A DNA stretch of 64,000 bases. Origin: a virus. The stretch's first letter is position 1. Each line of letters opens with the position of its first letter. Position numbers and translations under genes: made by a program. Of this stretch, positions 1-48,825 are shown piece by piece. The notes below the pieces were generated by a model, which ran no database searches, was not told the origin of the DNA, and worked only from the letters and a program-made list of their open reading frames with translations. The stretch spans positions 6,583 to 70,582 of IMG/VR virus record IMGVR_UViG_3300016476_000657; one strand, given 5' to 3'.

Positions 1-165
1 GGATATCGTAGTTGGAGGTACAGTATGGTTATCAACGACGGCGTTATTGAAATGATGTGGGTTGAACCAGGCATTGAAGATGACAAAGCTAGCGATCCAT
101 TTTACGTATCAGATGTAGGCACAATGATTAAATGGTTGAAAGAGAACCCACCAGAGAGCGAATAG
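1..165 (+). CDS. Peroxiredoxin (Prx5/redoxin-like), C-terminal part, truncated by window start
   Basis: Frame 1 reads GYRSWRYSMVINDGVIEMMWVEPGIEDDKASDPFYVSDVGTMIKWLKENPPESE*, matching the RSWRY..V.DGVIE...VEPG C-terminus of Prx5-type redoxins; not in ORF track. Confidence 0.7.
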   Translation, partial: GYRSWRYSMVINDGVIEMMWVEPGIEDDKASDPFYVSDVGTMIKWLKENPPESE

Positions 166-797
166 AAATTATTCCATGGGCTGAGTTCCAACAAGGAATA
201 GCACCATTGTGGTATAGTAACAGCCCAAGTACTATTCCTATCTTTAATAACCCTTACGGCATTATTCAGTACGACCAATCCGACTGGGCTAATAAGATAA
301 TTTATTTCCCAGCGAAGTATGTTGTTGATGAAACTACAGTAGGCTACATCAGCATCTATAACCTAAGCGACATGCATATTCGTCCTAGAGGTATATACAT
401 ACTTCCGGAACATAGGGGTAAGGGACTAGGACATCGTATGCAAGAAGCAGCGTGGAATCTATTTCCTAAAACATTTTATCGTGCATTCATTTGGAGTAGA
501 GACGAAAACGTTGAACGGTTTTCCAAGTACTCTAAGATGAATGTAGTCCCAGGAGGATCGAACATATGGAGCGAGTACAGTCAACTTTATATGTTCTTCA
601 TGTACCGTGACAGGCACACTAAACCTACTGATGACGAGTTAACACTTAACCGTGAGTTCTTAGAACAGCACAGACGACAATTTAGCTTTGGCGGACGCAA
701 TAACCTAAATAATAGCTGGGACAAGGACACATGGAGTAAATATTTTAGTAAGCACGAAGGTAACTACATTCAGCTTAATATTAATCTAGACTTTTGA
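132..797 (+). CDS. GNAT-family acetyltransferase-like protein
   Basis: Acetyl-CoA binding motif A: GIYILPEHRGKGLGHRM. Confidence 0.6.
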   Translation: MVEREPTRERIEIIPWAEFQQGIAPLWYSNSPSTIPIFNNPYGIIQYDQSDWANKIIYFPAKYVVDETTVGYISIYNLSDMHIRPRGIYILPEHRGKGLGHRMQEAAWNLFPKTFYRAFIWSRDENVERFSKYSKMNVVPGGSNIWSEYSQLYMFFMYRDRHTKPTDDELTLNREFLEQHRRQFSFGGRNNLNNSWDKDTWSKYFSKHEGNYIQLNINLDF

Positions 798-804
798 GGA
801 AACT

Positions 805-1962
805 ATGAGCTATCCAAACGAACTTGATCCCCGTTGGGACAATAAAACACTAAACTACGATCTTTCGAAACATAACTGGCCTGAGTACTGGTTAAATATT
901 GCAAAGCAAAAGTTTCCTCAGATTACCAGTCTAGAAACTGTTCACGAAATCCTTACCCCACAAGAAATTTCAGAGCTAGGCAAGCATTGTCAGCGAGCAT
1001 GTGACACACCAGAGTTCATTGCAAGAGCAGATGCATATTATAAAGATGCACTAAAGGATCTAGTTGACGATGAGTGGATGGTGCAGCGTAGTTTTACTAT
1101 TCGCATCGTTATTCCAAACCAAGCAAAGGTTGGTAGACTTCTAGCTTTCCACCAAGGCATTTGGGTAGGTAACGGTATTGGTCTCCGTACAATCTGGACA
1201 CCGTTTACCCGTTGCTACGGCAACAACAGTATGCAGATTATGGGCTGGGAAGAAAGTGATGATCTAACTCAGCGTTGCTATAATGAGCAGTGGAGTTACG
1301 ATAAGCTACAAGAAGAATGCAGCAAGCATACTTGGCCAGTTACACTAGAACCAGGACAAGCACACTTATTCCAGCAGCACCACATTCACGGTAACTTTAA
1401 TAATGATACAGAAATTACTCGTTGGAGTATGGACGGTCGTGTACTAGTTAAGGGCGGCTACTATGGTCGTAAGGTACCGGGTGGCTACTTCCGCTTCCCA
1501 GATGAGGAAGAAGATACTCGTCCAGTAGATACAAGCAAGCGTTGGATCAGTTATGCTGGCTGGAACACTAAGTTCAGCAGCCCAATCCCACTACCAATGC
1601 AGCGAGCAATTGTTGATCAATATATTAACAAGCATGGTATTCGTATCAACGATTATCAGTTTGAAAACGAATTCCTAGACTGGCTCCCCGGGCTAGAGAA
1701 GTACATCACTGGTTATAATATCGATGCTATTGTAATGTGCAGCATCTTTAACCTACCTGATGATGCTGATCGTAGATACGAACTGCTTAAGCTAGCTGTA
1801 GACAGCGGTGTAGAACTACACTTTGCCAACGAAGTTTGCAGTGTCCGAGACTACAAGGACATTGAACACATTAAACGTGTATTCGAATTTGTTAACGAAA
1901 ATCCAGACCCTAACTTATTCTTAGGCTTCACAAGCGCAAAGAAGACTGGCTGGACTGTTTAA
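805..1962 (+). CDS. Fe(II)/2-oxoglutarate oxygenase-fold protein (StrG / sporadic carbohydrate cluster type) fused to an LIC12192-like domain; H-x-G metal motif
   Basis: DSBH motifs FHQG...IWTPFTRCYGNNSM...HIHGN...TRWSMDGR; C-terminal domain PLPMQRAIVDQY...IDAIVMCSIFNLPDD...ELHFANE resembles the LIC12192 family. Confidence 0.65.
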   Translation: MSYPNELDPRWDNKTLNYDLSKHNWPEYWLNIAKQKFPQITSLETVHEILTPQEISELGKHCQRACDTPEFIARADAYYKDALKDLVDDEWMVQRSFTIRIVIPNQAKVGRLLAFHQGIWVGNGIGLRTIWTPFTRCYGNNSMQIMGWEESDDLTQRCYNEQWSYDKLQEECSKHTWPVTLEPGQAHLFQQHHIHGNFNNDTEITRWSMDGRVLVKGGYYGRKVPGGYFRFPDEEEDTRPVDTSKRWISYAGWNTKFSSPIPLPMQRAIVDQYINKHGIRINDYQFENEFLDWLPGLEKYITGYNIDAIVMCSIFNLPDDADRRYELLKLAVDSGVELHFANEVCSVRDYKDIEHIKRVFEFVNENPDPNLFLGFTSAKKTGWTV

Positions 1963-2549
1963 TGGCAGCACGTTTTACTCATCCGAGTACCGTTGTAGTA
2001 GCAGCACTGGAAATGGAACTTCCTACCTTTTGGGGTGGGCCAGTGCTGTTTACTGGTGTAGGTAAGGTACGAGCAGCAACAGCACTGTCTAAGTATCTAG
2101 CACTTAATCCGCACATCGAGCGTGTTATTAACTACGGCACAGCAGGAGGCATTAAAGGTGTAACCAAAGGCCACCTTTATCCTGTTAATAAATTTATTGA
2201 GAGTGACTTCCGTAGTTGTGCTATTAACCTTCCGCACAAAGATTTGGTTGAAGTTACACCTTGGATTGCAGGCACAGAGTTCTTCTGTTGCAGTACTCAA
2301 GATCATTTTGTAACAGATCCTACAGAGCTAGATGAAGCACCGTTTGGGGATCAAGTTAATTTAGTTGATATGGAAAGCTACGCCCTAGCTTTTGTTTGCT
2401 TACAACATGGCGTAGAGTTTATTTGCTATAAGTATGTAAGCGACGATGCTGACCATAAAGCTGCTGACGAGTGGATTGAAAATGTTAATGGCGGAGAAGA
2501 TCAGTTCAAAGAGATGTTAACGAAGTACCATGGCTATCAGTGTAATTGA
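1962..2549 (+). CDS. MTA/SAH nucleosidase-like (PNP/UDP phosphorylase superfamily)
   Basis: ALEME, GVGKVRAA, NYGTAGG, VDMESYAL, KYVSDDAD motifs. Confidence 0.8.
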   Translation: MAARFTHPSTVVVAALEMELPTFWGGPVLFTGVGKVRAATALSKYLALNPHIERVINYGTAGGIKGVTKGHLYPVNKFIESDFRSCAINLPHKDLVEVTPWIAGTEFFCCSTQDHFVTDPTELDEAPFGDQVNLVDMESYALAFVCLQHGVEFICYKYVSDDADHKAADEWIENVNGGEDQFKEMLTKYHGYQCN

Positions 2550-2748
2550 TAACATTCTAAACGAAGCTGAATTCAAGCCCGGTGGCATGGTGTGGAAACA
2601 TATTGCTAGTGGTCGTAGCGATCCGCTAGTTGCTGTTCGCAGTGCAGTAGATCGTATGCGTGAGCTACATGACATACCAGACAATCAATTCAATGCAGTA
2701 TGCAATGAAGTGTTAAAAGGAATACAAGCTAAGATAGCTGGATTTTAA
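2530..2748 (+). CDS. Hypothetical protein
   Basis: 72-aa ORF overlapping the upstream gene, with GGAG upstream. Confidence 0.5.
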   Translation: MAISVIDNILNEAEFKPGGMVWKHIASGRSDPLVAVRSAVDRMRELHDIPDNQFNAVCNEVLKGIQAKIAGF

Positions 2749-3476
2749 AGTCCGTATAAGGATTTAGTTGCGTCGTAGTTTTGCGTAACTTCTGCTTGTG
2801 TAAGAACTTTATTATAAAGTCTTATCACTCCTAGTTTACCTTGGAATGCCGCACCATTAGCAAATTTTGTAGTATCGCTGTTACCAAAATTTAGATACCA
2901 CCCCGGCGAGGGAGTAGTCCAAGCGATAGCAGTATCACTAGATTTAACCTTATTCAAATAAGCATAAGCAGTATTTGATCCGTTATAGACTCTGACCAGC
3001 TGGTACCAGTTGTTGAGCGTGGGGATACCTCCGCCTACTCTAGTAACGCCTGCACTACTCCATAACATAGCGTTAACATTGTAGAATGGCCCTGTCTGGT
3101 AGACTTCTAAACCTGTACTATGATAACCTGTGTTAGTAGGACCAGAGCCAGTGTCACTAAACACCGCACCACCAGCACTGGGGCTGAACCATACTTCTAA
3201 ACTGTGCTGCCAGCCACTATACAAGGTAGCTAAGTTGCCTGTTTGAATACTCTGTGAGCCGGTAAATGTAAACCAATTGCCTGCATCTGTAGGGCTACCT
3301 GATAACGTGGCATTAACACCGCTGGGTGATAAGTCGTATAAGGTAGTACCACTACCCGGATAACTTGTGTTATTACTTGGATCGTAATACAGCTCTAAAC
3401 CTGATGTGACACTATTGTCAACTCTAGTGTTATCAACAACTGTAACGCCTTTGAGTGCTACGCCTTGTATAAACAT
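2745..3476 (-). CDS. LamG/concanavalin A-like lectin domain virion protein
   Basis: GLELYYDPSNNTSYPGSGTTLYDLS N-terminus and FQGKLGVIRLYNKVLTQAEVTQNY C-terminus typical of phage LamG proteins. Confidence 0.75.
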   Translation of the reverse strand: MFIQGVALKGVTVVDNTRVDNSVTSGLELYYDPSNNTSYPGSGTTLYDLSPSGVNATLSGSPTDAGNWFTFTGSQSIQTGNLATLYSGWQHSLEVWFSPSAGGAVFSDTGSGPTNTGYHSTGLEVYQTGPFYNVNAMLWSSAGVTRVGGGIPTLNNWYQLVRVYNGSNTAYAYLNKVKSSDTAIAWTTPSPGWYLNFGNSDTTKFANGAAFQGKLGVIRLYNKVLTQAEVTQNYDATKSLYGL

Positions 3477-6476: not shown

Positions 6477-6583
6477 TGTCAGGTTTGTTTATTGTTTTTG
6501 TTGCATGGGTATGCAACAAGGAAATCAAAGAATGGTTTTCATCAGCTATTGCAGAAGGCATTCGCCGCAGTAAGGAATCATAA
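6476..6583 (+). CDS. Small hypothetical membrane peptide (35 aa)
   Basis: TAATG overlaps at both ends; MSGLFIVFVAWVCNKEIKEWFSSAIAEGIRRSKES. Confidence 0.5.
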   Translation: MSGLFIVFVAWVCNKEIKEWFSSAIAEGIRRSKES

Positions 6584-45812: not shown

Positions 45813-46631
45813 ATGGACTATTATCAAATACTAGGCGTAAATAGAAATTCCTCACCAGAAGAATTAAAACAAGCCTATAGAAAACTTGCAATGCAACATC
45901 ACCCCGATCGGGGTGGTGATGAAAACGAGTTTAAGAAAATCAGCGAAGCATACGATGTTCTCAGCAACCCTGAGAAGAAAGCATCATATGATAATCCAAG
46001 ACAAGCATACGGTGATTGGCGCGGCCCATTTGATCCAGGTGAACCTTTTGACTTTGAAGATATACTTCGGCAAGCTAGATCAGCATTCCACGAAAATCGA
46101 CGACAGGCCCGAAACCCTGATGCAATAACTGATGTTAATGTAAGCCTTAGTCAGGTCTTCACTGGCACTGATATGTTAGTTGATGTTGGTTATACTAGAG
46201 AAGTAATTTATATCAACCCAGGTGTTAAGAACGGCACTAAGTTAAGGTTAAAAGGAAAAGGGCCTAGTCGTTATAAAGATATGCTGCCCGGAGATCTCAT
46301 TGTTCGTGTAAATGTTGAACTACCACATAACACAGCAATTGACGGAAATCATTTTTTTGTTAAAATAGATGTTAATGCGTTGTCTGCAATTGTAGGCACT
46401 ACAATAGATTACCGACATCCAACAGGATCTGATTTAAAAATTACAGTACCCCCAGGAACACAGAATAATACTAAACTAAGATTACGTGGGTTAGGTGTAC
46501 CTGATTCTAATACACGGCAAAATGGAGATATGTTTGTCATAGTTAATGTTTTTATACCAAATGTAACAGATCCTACACACATTGAAGAATTAAATAAAAT
46601 TATTAAGGCAGGTAAATTTAATGAGCAATAA
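45813..46631 (+). CDS. DnaJ/CbpA-type co-chaperone (no zinc finger)
   Basis: J domain with HPD (HHPDRGG), C-terminal GKG...PGDL and GDMFV. Confidence 0.9.
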   Translation: MDYYQILGVNRNSSPEELKQAYRKLAMQHHPDRGGDENEFKKISEAYDVLSNPEKKASYDNPRQAYGDWRGPFDPGEPFDFEDILRQARSAFHENRRQARNPDAITDVNVSLSQVFTGTDMLVDVGYTREVIYINPGVKNGTKLRLKGKGPSRYKDMLPGDLIVRVNVELPHNTAIDGNHFFVKIDVNALSAIVGTTIDYRHPTGSDLKITVPPGTQNNTKLRLRGLGVPDSNTRQNGDMFVIVNVFIPNVTDPTHIEELNKIIKAGKFNEQ

Positions 46632-48825
46632 CACACAAGTAGAAAAGATCATTCACAGTGCAGCAGCGTTTGCTACAGAAAAAGGTCACGAATATATTTG
46701 CTTAGAGCATCTTGCATTATCACTTTTTGAAGACGATGACATTATTAGTCTTTGTAAAAATCTAAAAGTAGATCATACTCAGATCAAAGACGATCTAGTT
46801 AACTACCTAGCCGATAACGAGCTCAATGGACTTATTCCCACTAACGGTACTAAAGGGCTACCAAAAAAGACTGCTAGTTTAGATAGAGTTATTCAGAGGT
46901 CACTTGCACAAGTATTGTTTACTGGTCGTGATCGACTAAGCCCAATTGATGTACTAGTAAGTATTCTTACCGAAGACCAATGTCATGCAAAGTACTTCTG
47001 TGAAGTGAATGGGCTTGATAGAAATGTTATTATTCATTACATTGAACAGCAATCTAGGTCAGAAGAAAACACAGAGCTTCTGGAAGAGTTTACTACTAAC
47101 CTCAATCAGGAAGCAATGAATAGCAAGATCGATCCTCTTATTGGTCGACATGAAGAAGTAAGCGATCTGATTCATATTCTTGCTCGTCGCAAGAAGAATA
47201 ACTGTGTACTAGTAGGTGAGCCTGGTACAGGTAAGACTGCGATTGCAGAAGGCCTTGCAAAGAAGATCGTAGAGGGCGATGTGCCTGACATTCTTAAGAA
47301 CAAGGTCGTGTACAGCCTGGACATTGGTAACCTACTAGCTGGTACACGTTACCGCGGTGACTTTGAAGAACGAATCAAGGGTGTGCTACAAACGCTAGAA
47401 GCAAACCCAGATGCTATTTTGTTTATTGACGAAATTCATATGATTATGGGTGCAGGCAGTGCAGGTGGTAGCAGTGTTGACGTTGCTAACTTGATTAAGC
47501 CAGTACTTGGTAAGGGTCGTCTACTAACCATTGGTGCAACTACACCTGACGAGTTTGCAGACAGCTTTGAAAAGGATCGTGCATTGATGCGCCGCTTTGC
47601 ACGTTTAGAAATTGAAGAAACTAGCGTCGAAGACACTAAACTAATTGTCAAGGGGTTAAAGAATTACTACGAGGAATTCCACGGCGTTGAGTATGACGAC
47701 AAGATTCTAGACAAGAGTGTTGAGCTCGTTGATCGTTATGTAAAGACTAAGCACTTCCCCGATAAGGCGCTCGATGCTGTTGACGCCGCCGGTGCAGCCG
47801 TAAAGCTACGTGGGGAGAAAGTAGTAGCACTTAAAGACATTGTAACTGTTGTTGCTAAGACTAGTAAGATTGGGGTTGATGTAATTGACACCGAAAGCAC
47901 AACAGGTTACAAGAATCTAGACGGACGTATTAAGGGTACAGTATACGGACAGGATACAGCAGTTGATAAGATTGTAGAAGCTATCCTTGTTAGCAAGAGC
48001 GGACTACGTGAGCCTAATAAGCCTATCGGTAGCTTCCTCTTTGTAGGTCCAACTGGTACTGGTAAGACTGAAACAGCACGTTCACTAGCTAACGAGCTAC
48101 AAGCCAAGCTGGTTAAGTTTGATATGAGTGAATATCAAGAGCGTCACAGTGTTGCTAAACTAATTGGTGCACCTCCAGGTTATGTTGGCCATGCTGAAGG
48201 TAAGATGGGTCAAGGTCAGCTAATTGCCGCAGTCGAAGATAGCCCTAACTGTGTTCTACTGCTAGACGAAGTTGAAAAGGCTGCACCAGAAGTACTACAG
48301 GTTCTACTACAGGTAATGGATGATGGACGACTAACCAGTGCTACAGGTAAGACTGTAGATTTCACTAACGTCATCCTTATTATGACATCTAACCTTGGTG
48401 CTGCTAATGCAGAGAAGCGTAAGATTGGTTTCGGCGACAGTGTTAAGGCAGGTGAGATTAGCAAAGCTATCGAAAACTTCTTTACTCCAGAATTCCGTAA
48501 CCGACTAGATGCAGTTGTTGAGTTCAGCAAGCTAGACAAGACTATGATGCTCAAGATTGTTGACCGTCTAGTTGTAGATACTAACAAGCTACTAAGCGGT
48601 AACGACAGCAGTGTACGTATTGCTATTACAGAAATTTGTCGTCAGCAGCTTGCAGAGGATGGTTATGAGCCTAGTATGGGCGCAAGACCATTGAAGCGTG
48701 TCTTTGAAGAAAAGATTAAGAAGCCACTCAGTAGAAAAATCTTATTTGATAATCTGGCTGATTGCACAGTAGAAGTTAATTATGACAAAGAAACAGCTAC
48801 ATACAATTTCGCAGTCCAACATTAA
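46621..48825 (+). CDS. clpA: ClpA-like Hsp100 ATPase
   Basis: Clp N domain, two AAA modules ([14 protein letters not shown]; [15 protein letters not shown]), IGF ClpP-docking loop (KIGFGD), no ClpB middle domain. Confidence 0.9.

Follow-up and report, generated by a model that had tools for sequence, protein, structure and literature searches.

In silico analysis of a 64,000-nucleotide stretch of viral DNA (positions 6,583 to 70,582 of the IMG/VR virus record IMGVR_UViG_3300016476_000657, hereafter the window) revealed, close to its 5' end, a gene for a fusion protein of 385 amino acids (aa), composed of an Fe(II)/2-oxoglutarate (2OG) oxygenase domain and a C-terminal LIC12192-like domain. 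The open reading frame (ORF) is preceded by a Shine-Dalgarno-like GAGGA located 5 nt before the ATG, and its stop codon overlaps the start of the next gene as TAATG. The source record has a size of 71.7 kb and a CheckV completeness estimate of 19%, which implies a very large phage. The oxygenase carries a glycine, Gly118, in place of the aspartate of the iron-binding facial triad, and the protein of this uncultured marine phage is a credible candidate for a radical halogenase directed at sugars, which would be the first one encoded by a virus. The features of the gene and of its direct neighbours are collected in Table 1.

Table 1. Features of the oxygenase/LIC12192-like fusion gene and of the adjacent genes (positions in the window)
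Feature	Position	Strand	Basis
GNAT-like acetyltransferase, 221 aa, upstream of the fusion gene	132..797	+	same position in 9 related viral loci
Oxygenase/LIC12192-like fusion gene	805..1962	+	uninterrupted ORF, 385 aa
N-terminal oxygenase domain (residues 1-235), PhyH-type double-stranded beta-helix	805..1509	+	structure matches, TIGR04324
H116-Q117-G118, proximal iron-ligand His, Gly replacing the facial-triad Asp	1150..1158	+	codons CAC CAA GGC; profile alignment to PtlH
T129	1189..1191	+	Thr/Ser in all H-x-G members examined, mostly Asn in H-x-D
Q191, distal His minus 4	1375..1377	+	residue counts (see text); HctB analogy
H195, distal iron ligand, invariant, within HIHGN	1387..1389	+	codon CAC; alignments
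R206-W-S208-M-D210-G-R212, 2OG C5-carboxylate binding strand	1420..1440	+	aligned with PtlH; R206-W-S208 is CGT TGG AGT at 1420-1428
C-terminal LIC12192-like (TIGR04323-like) domain (residues 245-385), resolvase-like alpha/beta fold	1537..1959	+	TIGR04323 match, model, structure comparison
MTAN/futalosine-hydrolase-like nucleosidase, 195 aa, downstream of the fusion gene	1962..2549	+	near the oxygenase in 10 of 45 loci

The AlphaFold2 model of the whole protein, built from 66 diverse relatives, reached a mean predicted local distance difference test score (pLDDT) of 96 and a predicted template modelling score (pTM) of 0.91. The best match of residues 1-235 among solved structures was PtlH (2rds), with a Z-score of 14.3 and a root-mean-square deviation of 3.4 Å over 208 residues (VIA-align), and the top Foldseek matches of the domain include CurA Hal, SyrB2, PtlH and PhyH. 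At the level of profiles, residues 39-213 match TIGR04324 (SpoChoClust_2, 2OG-Fe(II) oxygenase; E 2.6e-22, 79.6 bits) and residues 261-361 match TIGR04323 (the LIC12192 family; E 1.6e-11, 44.2 bits), both under the curated NCBIfam cut-offs of 150 and 55 bits, respectively. Judged by the curated threshold, the oxygenase half is a divergent relative of TIGR04324 that stands outside its membership; the Pfam PhyH match is weak as well (E 0.006, under the gathering score). The identity of the protein as a 2OG oxygenase, proposed in the initial annotation, is nevertheless borne out by the PhyH-type fold, the TIGR04324 match and the retained iron and 2OG residues, and the proposed fusion to a LIC12192-like domain by the TIGR04323 match, though this lies below the cut-off. 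No PHROGs family matched the fusion protein, and tblastn against 50,697 GenBank phage records returned no homologue at E 1e-5, the records of its own genome possibly being excluded. Searches of other collections gave generic PhyH/2OG and resolvase folds (BFVD viral structures), generic PhyH or "StrG" names (AFDB clusters) and unnamed viral or bacterial clusters (ESM Atlas) only. The "sporadic carbohydrate cluster" family, to which both profiles belong by name, is unmentioned in the literature searched.

The H-Q-G triad, the intact distal histidine and the 2OG-binding R-x-S motif described in the initial annotation were all confirmed at codon level (Table 1). Alignment of the family profile with PtlH places the FH-x-D motif of the family on FHQD of PtlH (H137/D139), H-I-H-G-N on the distal His226, and T-R-x-S-x-D-x-R on MRMSMDTR. 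The spacing of the H-x-[D/G]-x-W-x-G motif is constant across the family, which makes gaps unnecessary there. The assignment of Gly118 to the position of the carboxylate ligand is upheld by this constant spacing, by the PtlH alignment and by the Asp found there in 82 relatives. Among 66 diverse members (20-93% identity) H116, H195 and R206 do not vary and S208 hardly does; the metal and 2OG sites are therefore under selection and not decaying. The motif FHQGIWVGNG is retained in 20 of 21 aligned relatives (61-93% identity) and in 47 viral loci; by these alignments the H-Q-G is neither a chance occurrence nor a sequencing error. A nearby Asp or Glu completing the triad would speak against a halogenase; at the sequence level no class-specific acidic residue was found among 21 non-redundant Gly-class members. 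Asp210 was considered as a compensating carboxylate and rejected, being equally conserved in the Asp class.

At the column of Gly118, 352 complete family members read H-x-G and 82 read H-x-D, in a collection biased by the choice of queries. An unbiased search of 50%-identity representatives yielded 254 relatives, from which 109 non-redundant N-terminal domains were used for a tree; 27 of these rows carry Gly. All of them fall within one subclade, which counts 39 rows, 12 of them with Asp, in agreement with the proposed conservation of Gly within a clade, and the other 70 rows, all Asp, include fused members adjoining nucleoside diphosphate (NDP)-sugar epimerase/dehydratase genes. Between three (well-supported branches only) and eight (best tree) changes between Gly and Asp are needed, and the simplest reading of the tree, whose root was not inferred, is that Gly arose once and that Asp was regained several times. 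The expected division into an invariant Gly in the phage homologues and Asp in bacterial relatives holds in part: the distant relatives do carry Asp, but a bacterial H-T-G clade exists and Asp forms occur inside the Gly subclade. All 118 relatives of a protein from a Planctomycetota metagenome-assembled genome (MAG) read H-T-G, and the organisms with this form, where the source names them, are Planctomycetota, Myxococcota and proteobacterial MAGs. The H-x-G is consequently not specific to phages. Another member has 95 relatives that read H-Q-G.

The fusion gene was found in 47 IMG/VR loci, one of them a giant-virus MAG. The homologue in the latter (L055:4980-6155; IMGVR GVMAG-S-1059906-5) has 391 aa and 38% identity and carries H-Q-G with Gln191. 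Two tandem paralogues, both H-Q-G, occur in 7 IMG/VR loci. Tandem fusion paralogues (L011, L013, L014, L015, L019, L020, L021, L050) are about 45% identical and possess Gln191, with a GNAT-like gene before them and a 362-aa gene of unknown function after them. In locus L050 the copy with H-K-D (2057-3150) is split into ORFs of 119 aa and 222 aa, which may represent a broken gene or an assembly error.

The residue at position 118 co-varies with residue 191, located four positions before the distal histidine. Residue 191 is Gln in 351 of the 352 H-x-G proteins and Glu in one (P0482), whereas in the 82 H-x-D proteins it is Ser (28), Pro (14), Ala (10), Gln (7) or another, mostly small residue (Thr, Gly and Asn among them). 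Most Asp returnees inside the Gly subclade have lost Gln191 (P0069, which reads H-S-D with Ser191, P0124, P0125, P0130, P0136, P0139) and two retain it (P0118, which reads H-K-D, and P0142), so it is apparently only in the absence of Asp that Gln191 is required. Independent contrasts, with the Gly118 and Gln191 columns masked during tree building, gave on average 4.7 of 6 pairs in the same direction and none in the opposite one; the median sign-test p of 0.06 is only suggestive, with few independent transitions. A structural counterpart is offered by HctB, a halogenase of the PhyH fold, in which iron is bound by His111 and His227, and Val113 and Glu223 flank the chloride (PMC6218459). These two flanking residues occupy the proximal His+2 and distal His-4 positions, the same two as the co-varying pair, and by this analogy Gln191 very probably adjoins the coordination site vacated by Gly118. 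It is this coupling of Gly with Gln191, in a clade of Fe/2OG enzymes that by its sequences has no carboxylate ligand, that is new. The sole H-Q-G member with Glu191, P0482, comes from a 6.1-Mb bacterial contig (ENA); around it lie three to four more genes of 381-385 aa with no Pfam match, possibly paralogues, as well as an APH-type kinase, glycosyltransferases and several transposases.

The C-terminal domain, modelled alone (residues 240-385), reached a pLDDT of 91.8. Its model matches catalytic domains of serine recombinases with Z-scores in the range 12.5-9, including 12.5 for 4bqq_B, 11.9 for 3bvp_B and 9.6 for 2rsl_A, and the Foldseek comparison with recombinases gave E 2e-05. A profile search of PDB sequences with this domain returned no relative and no recombinase. 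By eye, the Y-A-G-W-N stretch would put Asn254 at the position of the resolvase catalytic Ser, and the nearly invariant residues of the domain are Q266, E287, S313, F340 and E343. A resolvase fold seems not to have been described so far for a domain of sugar metabolism.

The immediate neighbours of the gene vary across 45 related viral loci and comprise (i) a nucleosidase; (ii) an NAD-dependent epimerase/dehydratase; (iii) a DegT aminotransferase; (iv) a radical SAM enzyme; (v) a WbuC-family cupin; (vi) a nucleotidyltransferase resembling RfaE domain II and glycerol-3-phosphate cytidylyltransferase; (vii) an ADI/amidinotransferase-like protein, and several proteins with no family match. The gene directly downstream in related phages encodes a nucleosidase, a cytidylyltransferase-like protein, an NAD-dependent epimerase/dehydratase, an unknown 362-aa protein or an ADI-like protein; an obligate linkage to the nucleosidase was rejected because of these differences. 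The bacterial H-T-G form has the gene of a PhyH protein on one side and that of a large GT2 glycosyltransferase on the other, and a bacterial H-T-D form lies before two NDP-sugar epimerase/dehydratases. These neighbourhoods, in phages and bacteria alike, point to a sugar, a sugar phosphate or a nucleotide-sugar undergoing tailoring as the substrate, in line with the action on a sugar or nucleotide that the initial annotation had proposed. In four loci (L049, L051, L052, L054) the H-Q-G (or H-K-G) fusion lies inside a larger sugar-tailoring cluster with a DegT aminotransferase, a radical SAM enzyme, a WbuC-family cupin, an ADI/amidinotransferase-like protein and a further H-K-D oxygenase fragment.

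On these grounds a radical halogenase is the leading reading of the phage protein, held with rather less than even confidence, and a hydroxylase acting with two His ligands, or with His, His and Gln, is nearly as likely. In the halogenase mechanism His116 and His195 would hold the iron, and Arg206 together with Ser208 the 2OG. The site opened by Gly118 would take up an exogenous anion, in the simplest case the chloride or bromide of a seawater-like cytoplasm, with the Gln191 amide and the Thr129 hydroxyl as hydrogen-bond donors to it; chloride may well be abundant for the enzyme, since some of the close homologues come from Tara Oceans samples. After activation of O2, a halo-oxo-iron(IV) species would abstract a hydrogen atom from the sugar, sugar phosphate or nucleotide-sugar, and the halide would rebound instead of the hydroxyl. 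The resolvase-fold C-terminal domain would probably bind the substrate by its phosphate or nucleotide moiety. Put in terms of families, the protein would be an active Fe(II)/2OG enzyme of the "sporadic carbohydrate cluster" oxygenase/LIC12192 fusion family, from a subclade with no carboxylate ligand, that halogenates, a proposal which we favour only tentatively. The halogenation could be cryptic, providing a leaving group for a later glycan or nucleotide-sugar tailoring step.

The halogenase reading follows a published precedent: a conserved 2His-Gly/Ala site with no nearby Asp/Glu, the marker that defines this class, identified, according to its authors, all previously known radical halogenases, both new candidates that they tested were halogenases, and mixed Asp/Gly forms were reported for halogenase and hydroxylase families (PMC13489965). 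The same pattern is matched here, since Asp and Gly forms are intermixed in one clade. In the BesD/HalA halogenases the D-to-G exchange needs in addition the second-sphere amide of Asn224 (bioRxiv 10.1101/2024.09.19.613983). Gln191 can likewise be a second-sphere residue and not a ligand, because seven H-x-D members have it beside a bound Asp. Several points weigh on the other side. An H-x-G is by itself insufficient for a halogenase, AspH being, according to its authors, a natural two-His hydroxylase (PMC10947486). Gln191 might itself ligate the iron and leave no room for a halide, and the Glu191 of the H-Q-G member P0482 shows that a ligand-capable carboxylate is tolerated there. When all PDB sequences were searched by phmmer and by profile, only PtlH and other hydroxylases were returned, with no characterised halogenase (SyrB2, CurA, HctB, WelO5, BesD, AdaV); no kinship to these enzymes was thus found in sequence, and the similarity to halogenases of the PhyH fold is confined to the fold; even there, the Foldseek scores for CurA Hal and SyrB2 are not above those of hydroxylases of the same fold. 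Nor do we know of halogenated sugars or sugar nucleotides from bacterial glycans.

The closest competitor, an oxygenase that does not halogenate (a hydroxylase, sugar C-H oxidase or desaturase) and yields a hydroxylated or keto sugar, is a serious possibility though one we consider a little doubtful; its iron would be held by the two His and water, or by the two His and the Gln191 amide oxygen. AspH works on two His ligands, according to its authors (PMC10947486). The strict pairing of Gly118 with Gln191, and the lone combination of Gly118 with Glu191 in P0482, would fit a ligand moved from the II-III loop to the VI-VII loop, and the combined side-chain volumes of Asp with a small residue and of Gly with Gln seem similar. 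Glutamine is known as a metal ligand in resting isopenicillin N synthase, and the H-x-D relatives stand in the same kinds of sugar clusters, so the overall reaction may be retained. Yet the seven H-x-D members in which Gln191 accompanies a bound Asp require no ligand role for it, and a neutral residue in place of an anionic ligand throughout a large clade, with repeated returns to Asp, is more readily understood if the reaction changed than as an outcome of drift. Moreover, the other characterised H-x-G/A families are, to our knowledge, all halogenases save AspH. An anion of the substrate itself, either the carboxylate of a uronic, ulosonic or nonulosonic acid or the phosphate of a sugar or nucleotide, might instead complete the triad and trigger O2 activation; anionic substrates are made likely by the neighbouring sugar-1-phosphate nucleotidylyltransferase-like, NDP-sugar epimerase/dehydratase, DegT and WbuC-cupin genes, and the Gln191 amide could hydrogen-bond such an anion, but we know of no 2OG oxygenase in which a substrate carboxylate or phosphate serves as the triad carboxylate and regard this alternative as improbable. 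Least probable of all is a domain that has lost its metal-dependent chemistry and is either dead as a catalyst or no more than a binder of ligands. 2OG hydroxylases are usually inactivated when the Asp is lost, as in prolyl 4-hydroxylase (PMC2767507); here, however, both His, the Arg and Ser that bind 2OG and many glycines of the active site do not vary among the bacteria, the phages and the giant-virus MAG, hundreds of members are conserved at 25-93% identity, and both tandem paralogues are intact.

Both halves of the phage protein match TIGR04324 and TIGR04323, families of uncharacterised function, and many homologues are named by the Joint Genome Institute (JGI) as this very fusion. The TIGR04324/TIGR04323 genes likewise stand beside sugar-nucleotide and glycosyltransferase genes; their distant fused members read H-x-D, whereas the phage subclade reads H-x-G with Gln191. 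PtlH (1-deoxypentalenic acid 11-beta-hydroxylase, PDB 2rdn/2rds) is the one protein in the PDB that the sequence profile matched significantly (E 3.6e-07). Its two His and its R-x-S-x-D-x-R motif align with those of the phage protein, but at an identity of about 18%, and it has Asp (FHQD) and, at distal His-4, Ala where the phage protein has Gly and Gln. SyrB2, CurA Hal and HctB share the fold and have no carboxylate at His+2; they differ in acting on substrates tethered to carrier proteins, for which no carrier genes were seen in the phage context, and HctB has Glu at His-4 in contrast to the nearly invariant Gln of the phage clade. BesD/HalA, WelO5, AdaV, AspX and BtnX resemble the enzyme proposed here in the H-x-G, in being free-standing, in their small-molecule substrates and in the required second-sphere residues, although they come from other sequence families, and no viral or sugar-directed enzyme is among them. 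The substrate of AdaV is a nucleotide (PMC11186838). Human aspartate/asparagine beta-hydroxylase, AspH, likewise has two His and no carboxylate (PMC10947486), but is a protein hydroxylase with TPR domains, from another branch of the fold and with no known halide chemistry. The cyanophage enzyme VirX1, mentioned in PMC8407142, is a virus-encoded marine halogenase as well. It is flavin-dependent, of unrelated fold, cofactor and mechanism, and performs electrophilic aromatic iodination as opposed to radical aliphatic halogenation. It is the only viral halogenase met in the literature searched. We know of no radical halogenase acting on carbohydrates and of no Fe/2OG type from a virus.

Radical halogenases are rare and are wanted as biocatalysts for C-H functionalisation. 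If the proposal is true, Fe/2OG halogenases would for the first time be known from viruses, and C-H halogenases for the first time for carbohydrates, a new class of substrate. It would then have to be asked what purpose the chlorination or bromination of a sugar metabolite serves a phage in the course of infection. Beyond the phages, H-x-G, Gln191 and Thr/Ser129 together might define a large unrecognised clade of Fe/2OG radical halogenases for sugars or sugar nucleotides, a conjecture that we think somewhat less probable than not; with similar reserve, such a clade may be taken to span marine jumbo phages, the giant-virus MAG, Planctomycetota, Myxococcota and proteobacteria. If Gln191 is instead the third ligand, it would represent a new natural 2-His-1-Gln metal motif in a well-studied superfamily. 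The Gly118/Gln191 coupling is useful either way, as the Asp revertants (e.g. P0118) and the Glu191 variant P0482 form a natural comparison set for hydroxylation versus halogenation.

The family scan of the proteins encoded in the window revealed genes for tail fibres and for structural proteins of the virion. The fusion gene, placed between the GNAT-like and the nucleosidase gene, has tail-fibre-like genes of the other strand next to it. A 72-aa ORF with no family match (2530-2748) overlaps the 3' end of the nucleosidase gene, and its homologues (cluster c22) come after the nucleosidase in five related loci. At the other side, the 5' edge of the window cuts into a peroxiredoxin (Redoxin/AhpC-TSA) gene (1-165); the order peroxiredoxin–GNAT–oxygenase fusion is repeated in many related phage loci, where genes for iron-sulfur (Fe-S) assembly and cysteine desulfurase-like proteins adjoin this block. 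Farther downstream, at 46621-48825, the phage encodes a full-length ClpB/ClpA-like chaperone with a double AAA+ architecture (Clp_N, AAA, AAA_2, ClpB_D2-small).

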